Numbered from the stretch's first letter, positions 1,306 through 10,307 are shown. The stretch is DNA of 20,000 bases from an uncultured virus (IMG/VR IMGVR_UViG_3300038828_000071) (IMGVR_UViG_3300038828_000071:58536-78535), one strand, 5' to 3'. The notes: generated by a model from the letters alone, not told the origin. Program-made: numbers and translations.

Positions 1306-3009
1306 TTATATTGCTATTGATATTTTAATTAAACTTTCAGCATTAGCTTCTACTAACTTTTTTGCTACTAATGGAACAACTGAATTTCCTATTTGTTTTT
1401 TTTGTTCTGTTTGATTTCCTTTAAGTATATAATCTTTTGAAAAGCCTTGAATTTCTTTCAGTTCTTTTATTAATAACATTCTCATTTTGATATCAATAAT
1501 ACCATAAATAGCCATAAACTCCTTAATCTTTATGGTCATTTCAGAATCATCCTCAAACACTGCAATTGCAATTCTTCCTTGTTCTGCTTCAACAAGATAT
1601 GGAGGTCTTTTATCCATTCTTGCAATCAAAGTGAATGCAGGACGTTCTATGCTTCCACCAGCAGACTTATATTGCGGATTAAGAAGATAGTGCTGTTTTC
1701 TTGATGCTAAAATAGTGCCGTGTGGTTCATCTATCGATTTACCAACGTTACTAAATTGCGTGTCCATTACCCAATGCTCAGCCGTTACAAAATTATGTTT
1801 TGGCGTTGTTGTAACTGTCCCTGCTGGATAATCTATTGAAGTACTGTCAGAATTAGAATAACTCATCATTAAATAAGAGATTTTTGATATTCGATCCTTT
1901 GTTGTTAATGTTTGAGCAGGTAATTCAACTTCTCTATTTGTGCCATTTCCGTAATAAGACGACAGAAAATGTGACTGAACGAATGCATGATGATCTGATG
2001 TGGTTATAGTTCCAGCGGGAAGTTCTATATCTGAAACCTTTCCTTCAGGTCTGCCGGAATAGTATTTTTTTATAAATGCAGCTTTCACAATTCCAATACG
2101 TCCTTGTGTGCTAATAGTTGGGCATGGTTCATCAACTCCTGGTGGATTATGATGTCCTGATTGATTTATTGAATTGTACTTTAAAATCCATTTGTCCTTT
2201 CCACCTGCAACAAACTTTACTAATCCGGCATGTATTCTCTTTAATGTCGCATCTGAAAGTGGAATTTTTCTATCAAATATANNNNNNNNNNTGCCTTCTA
2301 TGTCAAAGTCTAAAACTTCTTTTACTGCTTTCCATGGTTTTTTATTATATTCAAAAAGATTTCCCATTTCTTTTTGTTTTTTTCTCGGATCATAGTGAGT
2401 TGTTTCTGGAAATGCTATTGGAAGACCGTGTTTTGCAAATATTCCGAAGTATCTATCTCTGGATGTGTATGCGCCAAAGTCGGCTGCATTTAGCATTTTC
2501 CAATTGTAATTATATCCCATGTGCTGCACAGTACGCACCCAATACATATAGTCGCATCCTTTATGCATATCTACTGGACGTCCGTTATTATCTAATTTTC
2601 CCCAAGACATAAACTCTCTGACATTTTCAATATATAAGTAGTCCGGGTTCAAATGCTCCAGGTACATCATTAAATCCCAAGCCAATGTGCGACTATCTCC
2701 GTCACGTGGTAAGCCGCCTTTTGCTTTACTGTAATTTGTACATTCAAGAGAAGCCCAAATATTGATGTAGCAATCCGGTTCTGCGAGTTTTAATTTATCA
2801 ACCAAAACCTTTAAATGTTCAACTACTTTAAAATCACGAATATCTTCCGTAAAATGTAAAGTTTTTGGATGATTTGCTTTGTGTGATGCTATTGCTTTTG
2901 CATCGTGATTAACACAAGCTACAACATCTAATCCTGCCAAATGGATTCCGGTAGAAGTTCCACCAGCTCCGGCAAACAAATCTATCCAGTAAATTTTTGG
3001 AGTTTCCAT
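1306..3009 (-). CDS. C5 cytosine DNA methyltransferase (Dcm-like, phage type)
   Basis: Motif I DLFAGAGG, catalytic motif IV variant SLECTNYS, motif VI ENV, motif VIII SRDR, motif X GNSV. The ORF spans an N-gap. Confidence 0.93.
   Translation of the reverse strand: METPKIYWIDLFAGAGGTSTGIHLAGLDVVACVNHDAKAIASHKANHPKTLHFTEDIRDFKVVEHLKVLVDKLKLAEPDCYINIWASLECTNYSKAKGGLPRDGDSRTLAWDLMMYLEHLNPDYLYIENVREFMSWGKLDNNGRPVDMHKGCDYMYWVRTVQHMGYNYNWKMLNAADFGAYTSRDRYFGIFAKHGLPIAFPETTHYDPRKKQKEMGNLFEYNKKPWKAVKEVLDFDIEGXXXXIFDRKIPLSDATLKRIHAGLVKFVAGGKDKWILKYNSINQSGHHNPPGVDEPCPTISTQGRIGIVKAAFIKKYYSGRPEGKVSDIELPAGTITTSDHHAFVQSHFLSSYYGNGTNREVELPAQTLTTKDRISKISYLMMSYSNSDSTSIDYPAGTVTTTPKHNFVTAEHWVMDTQFSNVGKSIDEPHGTILASRKQHYLLNPQYKSAGGSIERPAFTLIARMDKRPPYLVEAEQGRIAIAVFEDDSEMTIKIKEFMAIYGIIDIKMRMLLIKELKEIQGFSKDYILKGNQTEQKKQIGNSVVPLVAKKLVEANAESLIKISIAI
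2282..2291. other. Assembly gap (10 N)
   Basis: Run of N inside the methyltransferase gene. Confidence 1.
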
Positions 3010-3021
3010 TTTATAAATTAT

Positions 3022-3486
3022 TTATATTAATTTGCTTTGCATTTCAGTCAATTCGACTTTTAACCTTTCAACTTTTAGTTCTGCATTCTTTAAACTCAAT
3101 AAACCATTTTTATATGCTTCATCGTGTTCAATAGGAAATATTTCATTATAATCTTTCTTATAATCTTCAAGCCTAATTATGAATGCAGCAATCTTATTTG
3201 TGTATTCAGTTATTTTGGCTTTTTTTGCTTTGATTTTATTTTTTAATGATTTTAAAATATCATCTGGAGTTTCAGGAGTATATGTACCCCAAAATATTTC
3301 AACAAAACCTTTTGGATGATTAACTTTTTCGAGTGCTGCTCTATACTCAAAATACCATCTGTATTTGCTAAATAAATTAACATTTAAGCCATTCCAAAAT
3401 AATGTTTTATCTAAAATAGAGCGTTGTTTATAATATACTTCTATTTTAAAATAATACAAATCATCAAAAGCTGTAATTGTTTCCAT
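3022..3486 (-). CDS. Hypothetical protein with coiled-coil C-terminus (154 aa)
   Basis: ATG ORF in operon; K/E/L-rich heptad-like C-terminal half. Confidence 0.75.
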   Translation of the reverse strand: METITAFDDLYYFKIEVYYKQRSILDKTLFWNGLNVNLFSKYRWYFEYRAALEKVNHPKGFVEIFWGTYTPETPDDILKSLKNKIKAKKAKITEYTNKIAAFIIRLEDYKKDYNEIFPIEHDEAYKNGLLSLKNAELKVERLKVELTEMQSKLI

Positions 3487-3960: not shown

Positions 3961-4380
3961 TTATAATCCAGTACTTCCATATCCACCGGTTCCTCTTTCT
4001 GTTTCAGATAATTCTAATACAGGTATAAAGTTTATTTGTGGATATGGCATAATTATTAATTGCGCTGCTCTATCTCCAATTCTATAAATAGAATTTTCTT
4101 TGGTACCCAACATTACTGCTGTTATTTCTCCACGATAGCCACTATCGATTACTCCAACAGAATTACTTAATATCTGTCTTTGTTTATAAATGCTACTTCG
4201 AGGAAAAACTAATCCAACATATCCTTTTGGTATTTCAATAGCAATACCAAATTTATATTGAATATGTTCATTGTCAATTTGATTCATTTCTACTACGGTT
4301 AAATCCATTCCGGCATCACCATTTTTAGAATAAGCTGGAATTACGCTATCTTTAGATAACTTTTTTATTTTTACGTCCAT
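3961..4380 (-). CDS. dut: Trimeric dUTPase
   Basis: All five motifs: AGMDL, PRSS, GVIDSGYRGEI, AQL, RGTGGYGSTG. Confidence 0.97.
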   Translation of the reverse strand: MDVKIKKLSKDSVIPAYSKNGDAGMDLTVVEMNQIDNEHIQYKFGIAIEIPKGYVGLVFPRSSIYKQRQILSNSVGVIDSGYRGEITAVMLGTKENSIYRIGDRAAQLIIMPYPQINFIPVLELSETERGTGGYGSTGL

Positions 4381-5546: not shown

Positions 5547-5578
5547 AATTATTAATGTTTATTATTTATTATTTAACT

Positions 5579-5614
5579 TATAAACGAACCTGTACTTCGT
5601 TTACAGAGATGTTA
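5579..5614 (+). repeat. Array-heading site copy 1 (candidate attI-like site)
   Basis: 35/36 identical to 8100-8135; internal hairpin TAAACGAA/TTCGTTTA; ends in the GTT that begins cassette A. Confidence 0.7.
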
Positions 5615-5623
5615 TGTGCCATT

Positions 5624-5863
5624 TTAAGAGCCGACACTGAAAATGATACGCCTTACAACTCCATCTGAATTTATTTTATCAGATTGTGCCATCACAATGC
5701 GTTCAGTATATCCTTGCTTGCTTTCATTCCATACCCATTTCTGTCTGTTGCCATCATAGTCATACAATATTCCTTCTATTTCACAAATTTTAGTACAATC
5801 ATCTATTTTTGTACTCATTTGCATAACGTCACCACCAGCGACATAAAATTCGGTTTTTATCAT
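5624..5863 (-). CDS. Cassette A hypothetical protein (MIKTEF..., 79 aa)
   Basis: ATG at 5863 preferred over GTG at 5905. Bounded by GTTATGTGCC (5611-5620) / GGCACATAAC (5891-5900). Confidence 0.7.
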   Translation of the reverse strand: MIKTEFYVAGGDVMQMSTKIDDCTKICEIEGILYDYDGNRQKWVWNESKQGYTERIVMAQSDKINSDGVVRRIIFSVGS

Positions 5864-5893
5864 TTCAATTAAGATTTGTGAAGAAAAAACGGC

Positions 5894-6024
5894 ACATAAC
5901 AGCACCTAACCAAAATTGGCGGTTTAGTGGTTATATCAACGTTTCTGCTTCGGTTTAACATTATTTTATATTCAAGTTTTGTGCTTCGTAATCGCCAACT
6001 TCGGTTAGCTGCAAAACGTTAGCG
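5894..6024 (+). repeat. attC-like site 1 (131 bp)
   Basis: ACATAAC...GTTAGCG; arms CTAACCAAAATTGGCG (5906-5921) / CGCCAACTTCGGTTAG (5993-6008). Confidence 0.85.
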
Positions 6025-6048
6025 GTAATGTAAAAGATACCGCCTAAA

Positions 6049-6456
6049 CTATTCGTATTTAATAAATAATTCATTTACTTTTTCTTCTAATTCGTTTAAA
6101 AAAGTAGTGTTTAGAATTTGTTTTAATCTATCTTTTTCAAATTTTTCATTACCATTCCAAAAAGAAATTGAAACGCTTTCTTTTGAGTTTATATAACTGA
6201 TTTTATCAAACCAAAAATTAAACTGAACATTTTTTTTAGGAAATTTTAAATGATAAGATAGATTGAAGTTGTTATCTATTTGTCTCCAAAATTCATAGTT
6301 AACAATTTTAATTCCGTCATTATAGCTTTCACTTGCATTTGGAAATTTAGACATAAACTCTCTAAATCTATTTTCAGTAAGCAATACACTACCGCTAACA
6401 CTCGTTTGCACGCATTGCGGTTTTTGTGGTTCAATGATATTTTTATTTCGCATCAT
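6049..6456 (-). CDS. Cassette B hypothetical protein (135 aa), starts inside site 2
   Basis: Cassette ends GTTAGCGGTA (6018-6027) / TACCGCTAAC (6390-6399). Confidence 0.7.
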   Translation of the reverse strand: MMRNKNIIEPQKPQCVQTSVSGSVLLTENRFREFMSKFPNASESYNDGIKIVNYEFWRQIDNNFNLSYHLKFPKKNVQFNFWFDKISYINSKESVSISFWNGNEKFEKDRLKQILNTTFLNELEEKVNELFIKYE

Positions 6457-6525
6457 ATTTATTTTTAAGTTGAAAATTTGTCGTTACGAACTCCGCAACG
6501 ACGAGCAAGCGAGATAACGTTACCT
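6393..6525 (+). repeat. attC-like site 2 (133 bp)
   Basis: Arms CTCGTTTGCACGCATTGCGG (6401-6420) / CCGCAACGACGAGCAAGCGAG (6493-6513); GTT at 6519. Confidence 0.8.
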
Positions 6526-6531
6526 GCAAGG

Positions 6532-6747
6532 CTACTCATCCGTTTCAAAATCACATTCCAATTCATCTAACAAAATGGGGTGAATACTATTTGCTTCAAA
6601 TCCACTTTCATTTGCAGCATCATAAACCATCATTTCCCAATCCTCGACCAGTTTGTTAATCTTACGTTTGAAATTTTTAAACTGCTCTTCCGTAATAGGT
6701 TTGTCAGTTTCAAAGTCAAAATTTAGTGTTCCTGTAATTGTTGCCAT
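6532..6747 (-). CDS. Cassette C acidic hypothetical protein (71 aa)
   Basis: Cassette ends GTTACCTGC (6519-6527) / GCAGGTAAC (6792-6800). Confidence 0.75.
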   Translation of the reverse strand: MATITGTLNFDFETDKPITEEQFKNFKRKINKLVEDWEMMVYDAANESGFEANSIHPILLDELECDFETDE

Positions 6748-6793
6748 TTTATTGTTGTTTAAAAATTAAGTTCCTACTGATAAACCGCCCAGC

Positions 6794-6887
6794 AGGTAAC
6801 AGCGGTTTGGCAAAAGCTGCCAGAAAGTTTTGTGCGAAAATTCAAGTTCCCGTTAGGCAGCCTTCGCCAAGCCGCAAAACGTTAGGG
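6794..6887 (+). repeat. attC-like site 3 (94 bp)
   Basis: Arms GCGGTTTGGCAAAAGCTGCC (6802-6821) / GGCAGCCTTCGCCAAGCCGC (6856-6875). Confidence 0.88.
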
Positions 6888-6892
6888 TGCAT

Positions 6893-7165
6893 TTAAGACA
6901 CCCCAACCAATTCGCAACTTTTGAAAAATTCGTCCATTTCAGACTTATTCTCAAACTTTACTTTTAAACCTTCGACAATTCCTTCTTCGGTTCTGGGTTT
7001 TACGATTGTTAGCCAATGCCCGTCAGAACAATGACAAGTATCAATTCCGCAACCGCCATTGTCTTGGCTCATTACAATTTTCCCTTTTGTTTCAACTGCT
7101 CCAGCTTCATTTTCAAAAGTTCCGTCAGGTTTTACACCTTCCCATTTAAAAGACTCTATTTTCAT
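6893..7165 (-). CDS. Cassette D hypothetical protein (90 aa, CxxxxCHC motif)
   Basis: Cassette ends GTTAGGGTGC (6881-6890) / GCACCCTAAC (7184-7193). Confidence 0.75.
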   Translation of the reverse strand: MKIESFKWEGVKPDGTFENEAGAVETKGKIVMSQDNGGCGIDTCHCSDGHWLTIVKPRTEEGIVEGLKVKFENKSEMDEFFKSCELVGVS

Positions 7166-7186
7166 TTTGATTTAAATAAAAACGCA

Positions 7187-7316
7187 CCCTAACAAAGTAT
7201 AACCAAAAGCGGGGCGACATTCGCAAATTGGTAATTTGTGCTGCTAATTAACTTTGTACCGAAGGATAAGGCAGCAGCACTTAATCCCCGCCTTCGGTTA
7301 TACTCGACCGTTATGT
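7187..7316 (+). repeat. attC-like site 4 (130 bp)
   Basis: Arms AGTATAACCAAAAGCGGGG (7196-7214) / CCCCGCCTTCGGTTATACT (7286-7304). Confidence 0.88.
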
Positions 7317-7568
7317 GGCATTATAACAAATCAACCGAACTGCTTTCCAAAATCCGTGTTGTTTAATTAAATTATCCACATAGTGTCTATCTGGCGAGTG
7401 TCCTTCACTTCCGTATATATTATACAAATAAGATGGATAGCACTTTGAACGAAAAGAATAACGCCACATAACACGCAATATAAGTAACCAATGGTGTAGT
7501 GGTTTATTCAAGTTCTGTTTTTCAATTTTACGTTTCATATAATTTGATATTAAGTTTTTCAAAATCAT
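7311..7568 (-). CDS. Cassette E hypothetical protein (start 7568 or 7538, both inside site 5)
   Basis: Cassette ends GTTATGTGGC (7310-7319) / GCCACATAAC (7463-7472); the stop codon is the TAA of the core. Confidence 0.55.
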   Translation of the reverse strand: MILKNLISNYMKRKIEKQNLNKPLHHWLLILRVMWRYSFRSKCYPSYLYNIYGSEGHSPDRHYVDNLIKQHGFWKAVRLICYNAT

Positions 7569-7596
7569 TGGCTACTCATATTGCCATCCGTTATAT
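7466..7596 (+). repeat. attC-like site 5 (131 bp)
   Basis: Arms GCAATATAAGTAACCAATG (7475-7493) / CATTGGCTACTCATATTGC (7566-7584). Confidence 0.88.
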
Positions 7597-7602
7597 GCCA
7601 GT

Positions 7603-8061
7603 TTAAGAAACGTACTGCGAACATATTGCAATTACTTTTTGACATTGTTCTACATCAAACATTCCTATATGACATAAATCACGTTCAATGTTCATCTGTT
7701 TACTTAGCCATAAATAAGCCTTATTCCTATTTCCTAAATTAGGTATAAACTCTTTCCAAATCTTATTTATCAATCCTGTTTTAGCTATTTGGTCAAAGTA
7801 ATAATGAGCCTGTTTCTTTGCGTCCCTAAGTTCTTTATTTGCTAATCTCCCTAAGGCATTATCAGTTCCTTTATGTACACCAACGTAAGCATCACATGGC
7901 TTACAAATATAAATCATACCATAACTTTTACCATAAACAAATGAACTATCTATATACTCGGTTTTTGAGCCACAATAAGGGCAAATAAAACCGGCATATA
8001 ACACACGGTCATCAGCAATATTTGCCGTGCTTTGTGGATTATTTTCTGCTAATTTTGTCAT
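7603..8061 (-). CDS. Cassette F zinc-finger protein, DUF3268-like
   Basis: CPYCG...CKPCDAYVGVH...LGRLA...AH...AYLWL...HIGMFD pattern. Cassette ends GTTATATGCC (7590-7599) / GGCATATAAC (7993-8002). Confidence 0.8.
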   Translation of the reverse strand: MTKLAENNPQSTANIADDRVLYAGFICPYCGSKTEYIDSSFVYGKSYGMIYICKPCDAYVGVHKGTDNALGRLANKELRDAKKQAHYYFDQIAKTGLINKIWKEFIPNLGNRNKAYLWLSKQMNIERDLCHIGMFDVEQCQKVIAICSQYVS

Positions 8062-8099
8062 TTGTTTTTCAATTAATATTATTATTTAATTATTTCGAG

Positions 8100-8135
8100 T
8101 ATAAACGAACCTGTACTTCGTTTACAGGGATGTTA
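8100..8135 (+). repeat. Array-heading site copy 2, in place of the right arm of site 6
   Basis: Near-identical to 5579-5614; not complementary to the left arm at about 8003-8030. Confidence 0.7.
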
Positions 8136-8151
8136 GCGGAGATTGTTCTAA

Positions 8152-8355
8152 TCACGTTTCAAAAGACGAAATAAAATTGTAAATTTCTTCAACTTTATCA
8201 ATATCAATCTCGTTTTTAAATTCATAATTAAAAACTACTTTTTTATTACTTGATTTAATTTCTTTTGTAAATAAGTTTAAAGATAAACATCCTTTAATAT
8301 ACCAATTTCCTGCTTTATGATAACCAAGATTTTGTAATTTTTCAAATAATAACAT
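8152..8355 (-). CDS. Cassette G second gene, hypothetical (67 aa)
   Basis: ATG ORF overlapping the upstream gene by 14 nt. Confidence 0.65.
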   Translation of the reverse strand: MLLFEKLQNLGYHKAGNWYIKGCLSLNLFTKEIKSSNKKVVFNYEFKNEIDIDKVEEIYNFISSFET

Positions 8356-8521
8356 TTTTCTGTTTTTTATTAATTAAACTTTGCGCAGCTCTTTTTGTTT
8401 TAGTAGTGGAGTTTGAACCTTTCCACAACCACATTGCATAATCAAAATCATTGTCAACTATCCAACTTATCAATTTGCCTTTATATTTTCCAAATTGTGC
8501 TTTTTGTTCTTCTGATTTCAT
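8342..8521 (-). CDS. Cassette G first gene, small FGKYKG-motif protein (DUF3820 / exonuclease X C-terminal-like)
   Basis: FGKYKGKLISWI...DYAMWL; ATG at 8521. Cassette ends GTTAGCGGAG (8132-8141) / CTCCGCTAAC (8550-8559). Confidence 0.7.
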   Translation of the reverse strand: MKSEEQKAQFGKYKGKLISWIVDNDFDYAMWLWKGSNSTTKTKRAAQSLINKKQKNVII

Positions 8522-8552
8522 AAAAAATTCCTTATTAACGACCCACAACCTC

Positions 8553-8685
8553 CGCTAACAGCAGTTACACAAGATTTGGGTTTTAGGTTTTCTGTATTCA
8601 TTGTTTTGTACTTTTAAATATTAGTGATTAATCGAAGATTTAGGCTTACTTTTCCCAAACCTCGTGTAGCTGCGAACCGTTAGCC
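8553..8685 (+). repeat. attC-like site 7 (133 bp)
   Basis: Arms GCAGTTACACAAGATTTGGG (8561-8580) / CCCAAACCTCGTGTAGCTGC (8654-8673). Confidence 0.88.
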
Positions 8686-8691
8686 GCAAGC

Positions 8692-9039
8692 CTAAGAAAC
8701 AACCTGCAACAAATCAGCATTCTCAAAAATATTTCCGACAACTTTGTTTAAGTTACCCAGACTATTCGCAAGCGACACAATACGAGTTTCATCATCAAAA
8801 TAGCGACAATACCAAGCGGCTTCATCTTCATTCCAGTAAACAATTTGCAATGCCTTTGTGTCGCAATTTTCAATTATATCTCCTTCGTAAACTTCCGTTC
8901 CGTTTATCTGTGCATCTTCCCTGCCAGTAAATTGCATTACTTCTATTTCAGGATGTTCGTTGTCGTATGGCAAAATTGACCTGTAAACCATTTTTGACAA
9001 TGCCTTGTCGTAAAATCTGAATTTAATTTGTCTGTTCAT
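8692..9039 (-). CDS. Cassette H YopX family protein
   Basis: IKFRFYD...MQFTG...EVYEGDI...VVGNIFEN signature. Cassette ends GTTAGCCGC (8679-8687) / GCGGCTAAC (9066-9074). Confidence 0.9.
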   Translation of the reverse strand: MNRQIKFRFYDKALSKMVYRSILPYDNEHPEIEVMQFTGREDAQINGTEVYEGDIIENCDTKALQIVYWNEDEAAWYCRYFDDETRIVSLANSLGNLNKVVGNIFENADLLQVVS

Positions 9040-9067
9040 TTTTATTGTTGTTGTGAGAAAGGCCAGC

Positions 9068-9163
9068 GGCTAACAGCGGTTTTGCAATAGCCGCCTGACA
9101 GTTCTCGGTTAATAATTAAGTTCATTCTTTGGCGGCCATCGCAAAGCCGCCCAAACGTTAGCG
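9068..9163 (+). repeat. attC-like site 8 (96 bp)
   Basis: Arms GCGGTTTTGCAATAGCCGCC (9076-9095) / GGCGGCCATCGCAAAGCCGC (9131-9150). Confidence 0.88.
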
Positions 9164-9169
9164 GCAACC

Positions 9170-9520
9170 CTAAGAGTGCCACTCGGTAACATCGAACTCC
9201 GATGGAAGTAACCCAAGTTGTTTGCCATTTTCTAAAATAGCAGAAACAGCACCGTAGGAATTAACCCATACATAATACTCACCATCTTTTAAGGCTATGG
9301 TATCTTTTTCAATTCCTAAAATTGGTGCAAATTCCATTAAATCAGGTGTAACAGTTTTAGCCAATTTTACTTTTAAAGGAACTCTACCCCGAAAATTTGC
9401 AGGATATGCAGATCTGCCTTTTCTATCCGATTGCCATTTTAAAGCGGGAGAAGTAAGGGCAGCCGCTAACATCTGCTCATACGTAAGCGGGTTTTTAGTG
9501 GTAATTTCAAGTGTGTTCAT
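9170..9520 (-). CDS. Cassette I hypothetical protein (ATG at 9520 inside site 9)
   Basis: Cassette ends GTTAGCGGC (9157-9165) / GCCGCTAAC (9462-9470). Confidence 0.7.
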   Translation of the reverse strand: MNTLEITTKNPLTYEQMLAAALTSPALKWQSDRKGRSAYPANFRGRVPLKVKLAKTVTPDLMEFAPILGIEKDTIALKDGEYYVWVNSYGAVSAILENGKQLGLLPSEFDVTEWHS

Positions 9521-9595
9521 ATAATTTAAGTTATTAAAGTTTGACAAATTTGTATTTCAAAATCCCCGCCTACGCATAGCAGACGGGCGTTATGC
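9464..9595 (+). repeat. attC-like site 9 (132 bp)
   Basis: Arms TCTGCTCATACGTAAGCGGG (9472-9491) / CCCGCCTACGCATAGCAGA (9565-9583); one extra C in the left arm. Confidence 0.85.
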
Positions 9596-9850
9596 TCCAT
9601 GCCCTCCGACCCTCGTGTTCCAACTTTCAATACAAGTTTTAGCACACCATTCAGCATCGTGCCTTAATGTTGCATCTGTCCTTTCAACCCTACAATGCGA
9701 GCCAGTGCATTTAATTGTAACTTTTCTGCTTTTAGTAGATTTATTTCCTATAAATGTTATCTTAGGCTCGCATCCGCAAAATGGGCACGGGAGCATAACA
9801 TCGGCTAAAAAAACATTGCCGTTATTGTCGCTATATTCAACTTTCTGCAT
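9590..9850 (-). CDS. Cassette J Lar-like (restriction alleviation) zinc-ribbon protein
   Basis: LPCPFCG...C....C...WNTR pattern. Cassette ends GTTATGCTCC (9589-9598) / GGAGCATAAC (9790-9799). Confidence 0.75.
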   Translation of the reverse strand: MQKVEYSDNNGNVFLADVMLPCPFCGCEPKITFIGNKSTKSRKVTIKCTGSHCRVERTDATLRHDAEWCAKTCIESWNTRVGGHGA

Positions 9851-9924
9851 CTTATTTAATTTTAGTTGTTAATGAAAATTTATCTTTATAAATCGGCAAC
9901 GAACGCCAACCGTCAACGTTAGCG
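9793..9924 (+). repeat. attC-like site 10 (132 bp, degenerate pairing)
   Basis: CGG...CATTGCCG pairs partly with CGGCAACG...CCG; correct length and cores. Confidence 0.65.
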
Positions 9925-10128
9925 ACAATTCTTAGCAACTGTAAGAACCCACTTTAGTTGTTCATCATCCAACCATCTGGGATATACTTGTCCAGCCTTT
10001 GTTTCTTTATAACTTTTATTGTATTCAGCGAAAAGTGCATCAATGAATTTTACATCATCAAAAGAACTGTCGCTAACAGCACCTATACCCAATTGGGCAG
10101 TTTCGTTGTTTTTTGAAGTTTCTTCCAT
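9919..10128 (-). CDS. Cassette K hypothetical protein (69 aa)
   Basis: Cassette ends GTTAGCGACA (9918-9927) / TGTCGCTAAC (10068-10077), 15/16 when extended; stop lies in the core. Confidence 0.7.
   Translation of the reverse strand: MEETSKNNETAQLGIGAVSDSSFDDVKFIDALFAEYNKSYKETKAGQVYPRWLDDEQLKWVLTVAKNCR
10071..10105 (+). repeat. Left half of attC-like site 11, right arm missing
   Basis: CGCTAACAGCACCTATACCCAATTGGGCAG resembles the site 1 left arm (TAACAGCACCTAACC); no complementary arm before the GTT at 10288. Confidence 0.6.
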
Positions 10129-10149
10129 TTTATTAAGTTTATTTGTTAT

Positions 10150-10251
10150 TCAATGAATTGAATCTATTACCTCGCCATATACTGAATGAGGCAATCCATA
10201 AATCCAACCATCTGTACCCGCTATTTTTGCTCTAAATTTTATTTGTTTCAT
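10150..10251 (-). pseudogene. Truncated YopX-like N-terminal fragment (33 aa)
   Basis: My translation: MKQIKFRAKIAGTDGWIYGLPHSVYGEVIDSIH*, with the IKFRA...WIYG YopX start. Not in the ORF track. Confidence 0.65.
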
Positions 10252-10307
10252 TTGTTTTGTTTTAAGTTGTTATTCGTTTATGTGTATGTTATGTGCAATA
10301 AATTTTA

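Follow-up and report, generated by a model that had tools for sequence, protein, structure and literature searches.

The segment between positions 5575 and 10292 of the window (the whole 20,000-nucleotide stretch of viral DNA that was analyzed) is probably, at about three chances in four, an array of mobile gene cassettes without an integrase, exchanged by site-specific recombination and part of a Bacteroidota-native integron-like system. It consists of a row of approximately 11 single-gene cassettes with 11 sites across 4.7 kb, within the part of a 78.5-kb phage genome that holds replication and accessory genes. Sites of this class were recognized in no fewer than 143 viral and no fewer than 136 bacterial stretches, almost all of them from Bacteroidota. 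As judged from sequence comparisons, the system is common in Bacteroidota and their phages and is unlike classical integrons in both site shape and enzyme. The genes in the window all lie on the minus strand, antisense to the sites, for which plus is the top strand. Read on the plus strand, a cassette would comprise TTAnnnnnn, a small minus-strand gene and nnnnnnTAAC, followed by A, a left arm of ~20 bp, a loop, a right arm, a 4–5-nt spacer and a final G. The features are as follows.

5575..5620, plus strand: first site of array A, a 7-bp hairpin AAACGAA/TTCGTTT, then ACAGAGAT, then GTTATGTGCC, assigned from sequence and fold
5612..6018, minus strand: cassette 1, small gene at about 5624–5863; R'' GGCACATAAC ends at 5900; hairpin S1 at 5897–6021
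6019..6519, minus strand: cassette 2, gene at 6049–6456, whose start may lie inside the hairpin loop; R'' TACCGCTAAC ends at 6399; hairpin S2 at 6396–6522
6520..6881, minus strand: cassette 3, gene at 6532–6747; short-class hairpin S3 at 6797–6884
6882..7310, minus strand: cassette 4, gene at 6893–7165; hairpin S4 at 7190–7313
7311..7590, minus strand: cassette 5, small ORF at 7311–7568 that starts within the loop; hairpin S5 at 7469–7593
7591..8132, minus strand: cassette 6, DUF3268 zinc-finger gene at 7603–8061; R'' GGCATATAAC ends at 8002, within the ORF; atypical site S6 at 7999–8135, which has no long arms and includes a copy of the short first-site hairpin
8133..8679, minus strand: cassette 7, two small ORFs at 8152–8355 and 8342–8548; hairpin S7 at 8556–8682
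8680..9157, minus strand: cassette 8, YopX-family gene at 8692–9039; short-class hairpin S8 at 9071–9160
9158..9589, minus strand: cassette 9, gene at 9170–9547; hairpin S9 at 9467–9592, with one bulged left-arm C
9590..9918, minus strand: cassette 10, Lar-like restriction-alleviation gene at 9590–9850; hairpin S10 at 9796–9921, left arm decayed
9919..10292, minus strand: cassette 11, gene at 9919–10128; R'' TGTCGCTAAC ends at 10077; right end of the array, with the atypical S11 (10074–10286), a 213-nt stretch without long arms that runs to GTTATGTGCA at 10283
C of TAAC, S1 to S6: 5900, 6399, 6800, 7193, 7472, 8002
C of TAAC, S7 to S11: 8559, 9074, 9470, 9799, 10077
Next GTT, S1 to S6: 6018, 6519, 6881, 7310, 7590, 8132
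Next GTT, S7 to S11: 8679, 9157, 9589, 9918, 10283

The ends of the cassettes are matched to one another. At all 11 consecutive junctions, the 9–10 nt that open a cassette (GTTAnnnnnn) are the reverse complement of the nucleotides ending at the next TAAC, and this complementarity differs in sequence from cassette to cassette. Such paired ends were found at 160 of 188 viral sites, compared with 7 of 188 when the variable part was shuffled as a control, and at 85 of 127 bacterial sites, compared with 2 in the control. The GTT of the first site, at 5611, likewise pairs with the reverse complement ending at 5900. The first-site element recurs at 8100–8140 and at genome positions 58305–58345, each time forming the left edge of an array, and the copy at 5575..5620 may play an attI-like role.

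Comparisons between genomes locate the exchange point. The Flavobacterium psychrophilum phages 2A, FPSV-D15, F7, D35 and D17 have shared blocks that are 98.3–100% identical (99.8–100% in all but one), and they differ only by whole cassettes, with all breakpoints at the right-hand GTTA and one common first site preceding four different cassettes. A 704-nt contig from another metagenome matches the window at 8132–8682 only, from GTTA to GTTA, and is unlike it on both flanks. The phage comparison resolves the crossover to within ACGTTA, in agreement with the G|TT crossover in R′ of an integron. Because these cassette gains and losses between near-identical phages (99.9–100% identity) break at the right-hand GTTA, plus is the top strand, a polarity that the sequence-only reading had proposed and that the foreign contig also supports. 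Sites of the array also recur elsewhere: the S2 loop (6406–6504) is 90% identical to a site in F. psychrophilum phages, and 6766–6884 (S3) is 89% identical to a site of a 642-kb uncultured phage, where it is paired with another gene. In the proposed mechanism, cassettes change places through site-specific recombination at G|TTA, where each hairpin ends on the right, and the substrate would be a folded single strand.

TAAC/GTTA ends and 20-bp covarying arms characterize nine of the 11 window sites. The inclusive TAAC–GTTA length is 124–127 nt in seven (S1, S2, S4, S5, S7, S9 and S10) and 88–90 nt in two (S3 and S8), the same bimodality that had first been given as 130–133 and 94–96 bp by counting 3 nt more on each side. 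Unpaired spacers in the nine hairpin sites are 1–2 nt on the left and 4–5 nt on the right (the R′ side), in agreement with the extra unpaired nucleotides noticed before GTT. Ungapped arm alignment reproduced the A·C mismatches described at the outset, with a left-arm A facing C at +12 and +15 (counted after AAC) in S1, S3, S4, S7 and S8, at +10/+15 in S5 and at +11/+16 in S9, which has one extra left-arm C. The exception is S2, where a +15 mismatch had been reported; its arms are irregular, with C·A at +14 and no clean A·C at +15. The arms are gap-free over 19–24 positions in S1, S3, S4, S5, S7 and S8, and a bulged base is present in S9 only, so the view that most sites lack the canonical extrahelical base holds. 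An ungapped scan recovered 271 related sites, and bulged extrahelical bases are not a feature of the class. Ungapped stems, the lack of bulged bases and the spare bases on the R′ side support the assignment to a non-canonical attC-like class.

Folding as DNA gave a lower minimum free energy for the minus strand than for the plus strand at all 11 window sites, by 0.6–5.5 kcal/mol, which bears out the predicted strand asymmetry. The bottom strand is likewise the more stable in 172 of 203 viral and 66 of 94 bacterial sites. Relative to shuffled sequences, the z values for S1, S3, S4, S5, S7, S8 and S9 were 0.42, −2.50, −4.02, −0.50, −0.68, −2.65 and −2.20 on the plus strand and −1.58, −2.81, −5.00, −1.61, −1.47, −3.06 and −3.46 on the minus strand; with neither strand significant for S1, S5 and S7, folding energy alone is weak there, and the energies of individual sites are modest. 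Covariation, the other check proposed for these hairpins, was computed on 18 equal-length relatives, selected by a scan that demanded paired arms: compensatory changes affect 18 of 20 stem pairs, and the covariation of 0.825 compares with 0.184 in shuffles, with none of 500 shuffles as high. In these relatives, standard pairs make up 95.8% of cells on the bottom strand and 86.7% on the top.

The mismatches that distinguish the strands are concentrated at few positions. Of 203 dereplicated sites, 191 have A·C at +15, the large viral and bacterial sets having been retrieved with patterns under which one or more sites of each locus had to carry A·C at +12 and +15. Among 99 neighbor sites not matching the retrieval pattern, the sole set without this bias, A·C is found at +15 in 89 and at +12 in only 16. 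Over the 203 dereplicated sites, A·C mismatches total 381, compared with 25 C·A; T·G at +6, seen in 79 of 203, favors the top strand over the bottom. IntI recombines the folded bottom strand of attC, reading extrahelical bases that set the choice of strand. In the sites described here, A·C on the plus strand becomes a G·T wobble on the minus strand, near-universally at +15 with a second at +12 or +10, and these fixed mismatches, together with the one-sided spacer, would give the two strands different folds and single out the minus (bottom) strand for formation of the recombination hairpin. The wobble pairs may thereby take over the role of the bulged extrahelical bases of classical attC, and the cognate recombinase might read them, as the sequence-only reading suggested.

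The A·C positions might instead have no role of their own, being an ancestral inheritance or part of a protein-binding motif, CAAnA/CnTCG, read in double-stranded DNA. The mismatches do sit within this conserved motif, with CAAnA on the left arm facing CnTCG on the right, in which C at +11 and A at +13 hardly vary even outside the retrieval pattern (Watson–Crick in 88 and 83 of the 99 neighbor sites, respectively), and many sites have homologous loops in common. We nevertheless consider this explanation unlikely. The remaining stem positions covary freely, with three to four pair types each, but +15 is still A·C in 89 of the 99 unbiased neighbor sites, which come from hundreds of contigs; although one substitution would suffice for a Watson–Crick pair, the mismatch is kept, which argues for selection on the mismatch itself. 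Moreover, no such mismatch exists in double-stranded DNA. The claim that the hairpins conserve geometry, not sequence, is overstated because the mismatches lie in the conserved motif. Other fixed positions are +1, which is invariably A, the base preceding GTTA, which is invariably C, and +7, which is T in 103 of 106 sites.

Gene orientation bears on a further explanation, to which we give little credence, namely that the hairpins are mRNA elements (terminators, RNase III sites or stabilizers), that selection on RNA accounts for the G·U-friendly pattern of the gene-sense strand, and that genes shuffle as a side effect of homologous recombination between similar linkers. Genes in the viral set are antisense to their sites in 147 cases and sense in 11. 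In the phage studied here, with all genes on minus, the better-pairing strand is the transcribed sense strand; A·C on one strand with G·U on the other typically signals an RNA helix, the hairpins are located between genes, and there are six terminator-like matches compared with 2.4 expected. In bacterial arrays with the same site class, however, 64 genes are sense and 21 antisense. Because bacterial genes lie on the A·C-carrying strand, the strand asymmetry follows the site and not the transcript. The long stems were rejected as intrinsic terminators, since they have loops of 45–75 nt and no T run, and none of the six terminator-like matches coincides with one. Homologous recombination would also leave both the cassette-specific end complementarity and the exact GTTA breakpoints unexplained. 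IS200/IS605, REP/RAYT and other HUH elements were rejected, as no transposase or HUH family was found among 65 ORFs scanned against Pfam and the hairpins lie between units rather than at the two ends of an element. For mobile cassettes, the phage arrangement, in which the hairpin lies upstream of its own gene and gene starts often fall within the loop, suggests that each cassette may carry its own expression signals. The sequence-only reading had missed the antisense orientation of the phage genes, which is the reverse of that in classical cassettes and in the bacterial arrays.

The phage itself encodes no apparent recombinase for these sites: its 99%-complete genome has no PF00589 (tyrosine recombinase) match, and tblastn also found none. 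The array would therefore rely on an enzyme of the host or of a co-infecting element. Some bacterial arrays begin beside an Xer/IntI-like tyrosine recombinase that lacks the IntI-specific domain; homologues lie to the left of the arrays in bacterial loci L179, L213, L222, L227 and L210 (39.7–49% identity) and are found in viral loci L017, L048/49, L015 and L039 (35–44%). In F. celericrescens, a recombinase gene is followed by about a dozen sense cassettes (ten with paired ends, eleven ORFs). A recombinase is within reach in a minority of cases, with five to six intact genes and five fragments among ~80 bacterial array loci and a close homologue (45–49% identity) in three of five whole genomes, and the link between recombinase and array is an association. 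Alignment of the array-side recombinases with VchIntIA breaks into two pieces, 35 aa standing in place of the 77 of IntI4, but alignment with the XerA structures 4a8e and 5hxy is in one piece. They score 155–209 bits against TIGR02249 (cut-off 265), in every case with a break near model positions 179 and 239, and NF040815 is their best or near-best model (186–240 bits), with one (L179) exceeding its cut-off of 220. Some carry an N-terminal extension of ~290 aa with no Pfam match, and their public names are XerD or ‘tyrosine-type recombinase’. The absence of the IntI-specific domain places them on a different branch of the Xer/IntI group, which fits the suggestion of a distinct recombinase family. 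The enzyme acting on the array is most likely the Xer/IntI-like recombinase that heads arrays in Bacteroidota chromosomes and some phages. Overall, the original observation is confirmed and its interpretation is supported in part.

Ordinary attC sites, forming a CALIN of host-integron origin on which a classical IntI acts, are a highly improbable alternative. The TAAC/GTTA cores, cassette logic and hairpin arms fit the integron plan, and the array qualifies as a CALIN (at least two nearby attC sites and no integrase), provided that these non-canonical sites count as attC; among phage CALINs already published, IntI1 recombined five of six tested attC sites (PMC9892861). Against this, the sites have their spare bases on the R′ side and no bulged extrahelical bases, and the array-side recombinases fall below the integron-integrase cut-off and lack the IntI-specific domain. 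In the available parts of the IntegronFinder 2.0 paper, hardly any integrons are recorded in Bacteroidetes (PMC9024848). A search against Rfam gave no matches. The available text and supplement of the phage screen name no Flavobacterium phage, although phage 2A has at least six such sites, and the tested site that resembles this class, P12002L_attC1, is the one on which IntI1 failed (n = 1; PMC9892861).

Several known systems offer points of comparison. Like classical integrons (class 1 and the Vibrio cholerae superintegron with VchIntIA), the sites have AAC...GTT inverted cores with covarying imperfect arms, an inner core complementary to the start of its own cassette and a G|TT crossover in the right-hand core; single-gene cassette arrays that extend from a first site beside a tyrosine recombinase are matched by the bacterial arrays. 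The canonical attC layout has a roughly symmetric unpaired spacer. By contrast, the present sites have a 4–5-nt spacer on one side only, adjoining R′, and no bulged bases but fixed A·C (top) or G·T (bottom) pairs at +15 and at +12 or +10. The R boxes are complementary over 9–10 nt. The recombinase has no IntI-specific domain and, in bacteria, points the same way as the cassettes. Phage genes are antisense to the site with the hairpin upstream, whereas classical cassette ORFs are sense to the attC top strand and transcribed from a promoter at the attI side; the bacterial arrays share the sense orientation. By score and one-piece alignment, the array-side enzymes resemble Xer-type recombinases, archaeal XerA and archaeal integron integrases (NF040815); unlike Xer recombinases, they are found at the head of cassette arrays and not at a dif site. 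Small accessory genes in hyperplastic regions, with stem-loops marking the points of shuffling, are also typical of the promoter-early stem-loops (PeSLs) of T4-type phages and the morons of lambdoid phages, which are thought to shuffle through homologous recombination at common regulatory sequences; cassette-specific complementary ends and a fixed GTTA crossover are not known in either. Another precedent is the report of integrase-less clusters of attC-like sites in virulent and temperate phages (Qi et al. 2023, Front Microbiol; PMC9892861). These clusters include one in a phage of Flavobacteriaceae, Polaribacter phage P12002L, whose attC1 has TAACG...TGTTA ends as here; the F. psychrophilum phages, the site class, the inverted gene orientation and a cognate enzyme are not reported in the available parts of that paper. 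Compared with these published CALINs, the present sites form 11 cassettes in one phage and are spread over 143 or more viral and 136 or more bacterial stretches.

The array between 5575 and 10292 contains eleven hairpin sites (S1–S11), each delimited by TAAC and GTTA ends, that bound about 11 cassettes. Ungapped alignment of the arms, counted from the first base after AAC, places a left-arm A opposite a right-arm C (A·C on the plus or top strand, G·T on the minus or bottom strand) at +12 and +15 in S1, S3, S4, S7 and S8, and at +10 and +15 in S5; S9 has A·C at +11 and +16, plus one extra C in its left arm. These assignments match those of the sequence-only reading for all seven sites, but S2, which it had also included, is irregular. 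S6 and S11 have no long arms, and the left arm of S10 is decayed. Spacers measure 1–2 nt on the left and 4–5 nt on the right, and the TAAC-to-GTTA length is 124–127 nt in seven sites and 88–90 nt in two. DNA folding gave a more stable minus strand, as had been proposed, in 11 of 11 sites (margin of 0.6–5.5 kcal/mol), and the shuffle z-score was lower on the minus strand in all seven sites tested; energies are weak for S1, S5 and S7, for which energy alone is not significant on either strand.

The array belongs to an integron-like system that is large and scarcely described. A pattern built on the window sites matches at least 143 stretches in IMG/VR, with lengths that peak at 124–128 nt even though 113–140 nt were permitted, and a tighter pattern matches at least 136 bacterial stretches, nearly all of them from Bacteroidota (Flavobacteriales, Chitinophagales, Sphingobacteriales and Cytophagales among the matches listed). 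A blastn comparison matched S2 to Flavobacterium psychrophilum phages (90% identity) and S3 to an uncultured phage of 642 kb (89%), and these phages carry arrays of the same construction as that of the window. Across 106 dereplicated pattern sites, free stem positions are 76–98% Watson–Crick, mostly with three to four pair types each, and 92–98% save at +3, +5 and +21 when +6, which is T·G in 43% of these sites, is set aside. In 18 equal-length sites, chosen by a scan that demanded paired arms, 18 of 20 pairs show compensatory changes, and covariation (0.825, compared with 0.184 in shuffles) was reached in none of 500 shuffles; standard pairs account for 95.8% of bottom-strand cells and 86.7% of top-strand cells. 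RNAalifold returned no structure from a MAFFT alignment of 20 mixed-length sites because their arms were out of register, and Rfam at gathering thresholds gave no hits.

We then considered whether the mismatches themselves are conserved. A generic hairpin scan that gave A·C no credit, run on 203 dereplicated viral sites whose loci had been fetched by a pattern requiring both A·C positions (+12 and +15) at one or more sites per locus, found A·C at +15 in 191, at +12 in 117 and at +10 in 21. Left-A/right-C outnumbered the reverse by 381 to 25, and the spacer difference of about 4 bases always lay toward the right. The fair test is provided by 99 neighbour sites outside the retrieval pattern: 89 have A·C at +15, and the second mismatch varies (+12 in 16, +10 in 16, C·A at +13 in 10). 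Because one base change would repair +15 and the other stem positions covary, the +15 mismatch itself is, on this comparison, retained by selection. The mismatches sit in a conserved motif, CAAnA opposite CnTCG, so the view that the hairpins conserve geometry and not sequence was only half right. Folding favours the bottom strand in 172 of the 203 viral sites (mean difference −2.2 kcal/mol) and, among bacterial sites, in 66 of 94 (mean −1.2); a T·G at +6, found in 79 of the 203, has the opposite effect, placing a mismatch on the bottom strand. Ungapped arms, fixed A·C and spare bases towards the right support the proposal of a non-canonical site class.

The same strand asymmetry could arise if the hairpins were RNA elements, since in the phage the better-pairing strand is the messenger sense and an RNA role would explain the G·U pattern. 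However, bacterial arrays of the same class have their genes on the top strand, the A·C-bearing one, as seen directly in the Flavobacterium qiangtangense array sequence, and the long stems have no T-run. Cassettes are oriented 64 sense to 21 antisense in bacteria and 11 sense to 147 antisense in phages. Because the asymmetry tracks the site and not the transcript, this comparison favours a role in DNA, and an additional RNA effect may operate in phages. Inside one cassette of the F. qiangtangense array (2990–3075 of the compared stretch, L203) lies a stretch that resembles a tRNA gene, judged by eye.

Complementary cassette ends are a classical mark of integron cassettes. On the plus strand, a cassette here reads TTA, gene, R″ (the inner core ending TAAC), arms and G, and the 9–10 nt starting at each right-hand GTTA and the 9–10 nt ending in the next TAAC are perfectly reverse-complementary. 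This is true of 11 junctions in a row within the window and of one more just to its left (genome 58339/58505). The real genome holds 38 9-mer pairs of this kind, 12 of them chained GTTA pairs, compared with about 20, scattered, in shuffled genomes. As the pairing is symmetric between strands, it does not set polarity. Breakpoints were compared among phages 2A, FPSV-D15, F7, D35 and D17, whose common blocks are 98.3–100% identical (99.8–100% in all but one) and which differ by whole cassettes. All breakpoints fall at the GTTA at a site's right end; four different cassettes follow one common first site in four phages, and D35 has an extra unit consisting of GTTATCACT, a gene, a TAAC end and a hairpin, up to the next GTTA. 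A contig of 704 nt from a different metagenome matches the window at 8132–8682 only, from GTTA to GTTA, and its flanks are unlike those of the window on both sides. Breakpoints at the right-hand GTTA indicate that crossover is at the right-hand core and that plus is the top strand; the phage breakpoints and the contig match bear out the strand assignment first made from the sequence alone. The opposite polarity (gene-sense strand as top, crossover at the left TAAC), which we favoured at first because of the ATG inside GTTATG and the TAA inside CATAAC (52-aa frame, 7310–7481), Lar and DUF3268 Pfam domains starting at the boundary, the canonical-looking gene orientation and the side of the spare bases, is excluded by the phage comparisons.

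Contig joints with ~20-nt sides, considered as excision events, were attributed instead to cross-matching among similar sites from other organisms. The 642-kb phage contains, twice (L002:3720–3795 and 4113–4190), a ~70-nt unit that has neither hairpin nor TAAC end, starts with GTTATGCGCC and ends in ...aaagta ahead of the next GTTA; each copy stands between a site and the next cassette, like a hairpin-less cassette.

The phage record of 78,535 bp, of which the window is the last 20 kb, is rated 99% complete. Window genes lie on the minus strand throughout, and GC content is 0.25–0.30, rising to as much as 0.40 across the hairpin region.

Features of the window and its left flank
Before the small-gene region in the listed gene order, minus strand: DnaB helicase, HU, Dda-like helicase and sliding clamp
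5.6–10.3 kb, minus strand: small-gene region
After the small-gene region in the listed gene order, minus strand: 5′–3′ exonuclease, dUTPase and C5 methylase
Window 5575–5620: short-hairpin copy
Window 8100–8140: short-hairpin copy
Genome 58305–58345 (L006:2305–2345): short-hairpin copy
6456, 7568, 8061, 9522/9547, 9850 and 10128: ORF starts located in hairpin loops

The cassette region encodes a Lar-like restriction-alleviation protein, YopX and DUF3268, with a Tad2-like gene and the C5 methylase nearby. The Tad2-like gene (genome 57585–57938), which we take to be a Thoeris anti-defence gene, adjoins a separate single-cassette unit just left of the window (genome 58339–58627, L006:2339–2627), which has a 126-nt hairpin and ends that obey the same pairing rule (GTTATGTGCA / TGCACATAAC). 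The short hairpin consists of AAACGAA, a 6–8-nt loop and TTCGTTT, then ACAGRGAT or ATAGAGAT, then GTTA. Each of its three copies marks the left edge of a cassette run, with the start codon of the gene that follows in the direction of transcription ~35–70 nt away, and it may be an attI-like first site of the phage. Six of the 11 cassettes have a longest ORF that begins within their own hairpin loop and runs on through the left arm and TAAC core; a recurring AACTTAAT / AACTTGAAT motif precedes several of these starts by 5–20 nt on the minus strand. A sigma-70 promoter scan, whose model does not cover Bacteroidota promoters, found 14 matches against 20.9 expected and is uninformative here.

Individual sites have further features. 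The S2 loop and inner stem (6406–6504) are 90% identical to an F. psychrophilum phage site (L001:4001–4099), whereas the sites differ, with compensating changes, in the outer stem and in both cores; a short ORF in this loop is not conserved at the protein level, and the loop seems to be retained as nucleotide sequence. On the minus strand of S1 (5897–6021), CGAAG, the arm motif bearing the wobble pairs, occurs twice more in the loop, at ~+30 and ~+70. Extra GAAG copies in loops were rejected as the source of the two length classes, being present in S1 and only a minority of long sites. Wastewater and freshwater metagenome contigs cover site regions 5828–6155, 6648–6975 and 8944–9107 at summed depths of up to ~1,176 and leave most genes between the hairpin sites uncovered, which fits a site family that is very abundant in those communities. 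Window stretches that no contig covers carry no information of their own.

A candidate enzyme lies beside some of the arrays. Arundinibacter roseus encodes a 558-aa tyrosine recombinase left of its array, immediately followed by an SSB gene (L210:3203–3550). Homologues lie left of the arrays at four more bacterial loci (39.7–49% identity, co-oriented with the sites) and at four viral loci (35–44%, antisense to the sites), and five further loci contain recombinase fragments. F. celericrescens has a 580-aa homologue at L290:2585–4327, adjacent to a housekeeping gene. After it come one ORF, the first GTTA (before L290:4998) and about a dozen cassettes in sense orientation, which hold eleven ORFs and of which ten have paired ends; the ORF at the SSB-equivalent position (L290:4360–4860) has no Pfam match. 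The recombinases are 266–289 aa long in phages (L048:4915–5784 encodes one of ~280 aa) and 352–377 or 558–580 aa in bacteria, and public sources name the family XerD or 'tyrosine-type recombinase'. Array-side proteins score 155–209 bits against the integron-integrase model TIGR02249, below its cut-off of 265, with a match always split near model positions 179 and 239, and 186–240 bits against NF040815. Alignment to VchIntIA (2a3v) breaks at the IntI extra domain (35 residues against 77), whereas alignment to XerA structures is unbroken. Close homologues (45–49% identity) occur in three of five array-carrying genomes, so we regard the recombinase–array link as an association; at that level, the missing IntI-specific domain and the sub-threshold scores support the suggestion of a distinct recombinase family. 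The window phage has no tyrosine recombinase in its record (no PF00589 match at E ≤ 1), and Pfam scans of 65 ORFs revealed no recombinase or transposase. Its primase is the sole protein in common with phage 2A, with which no recombinase candidate is shared, and a search with its sliding clamp found no relatives among viral contigs. Cassette exchange in this phage would need a host or helper enzyme.

Integrons are generally regarded as close to absent from Bacteroidota and uncommon in phages, a view that depends on classical attC models and on the IntI-specific domain, which binds bulged bases. We propose, at somewhat less than even odds (about 0.45), that Bacteroidota and their phages share a common, large integron-like exchange system that classical detectors have apparently missed. 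In such a system, fixed G·T wobble pairs (A·C on the other strand) and a one-sided spacer would replace bulged bases in telling the strands apart, and the enzyme would be a Xer-like recombinase without the IntI domain, which may read the wobble pairs as first suggested from the sequence. Phage cassettes would be reversed, the hairpin preceding a gene that lies on the folding strand, and would bring along their own start signals, and enzyme-less phages could reshuffle accessory and anti-defence genes through the host's copy. The array and its hundreds of relatives, in phages and in genomes of four Bacteroidota orders, point to a parallel integron branch missed by classical models, supply a concrete mechanism by which accessory regions of Bacteroidota phages could become mosaic, and raise the question of how strands are marked at a single-strand recombination site without bulged bases.

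The full-text literature outside subscription journals yielded no account of this site class, of comparable arrays in Bacteroidota or of those in F. psychrophilum phages. For Bacteroidetes proper, the IntegronFinder 2.0 paper (PMC9024848) counts a single complete integron. Qi et al. (2023; PMC9892861) reported 17 CALINs among 10,705 phage genomes, in a paper whose text names no Flavobacterium phage. In the same study, IntI1 recombined five of six tested phage sites; the one that failed, P12002L_attC1 from a Polaribacter phage, has TAACG...TGTTA ends like those of the site class in the window.
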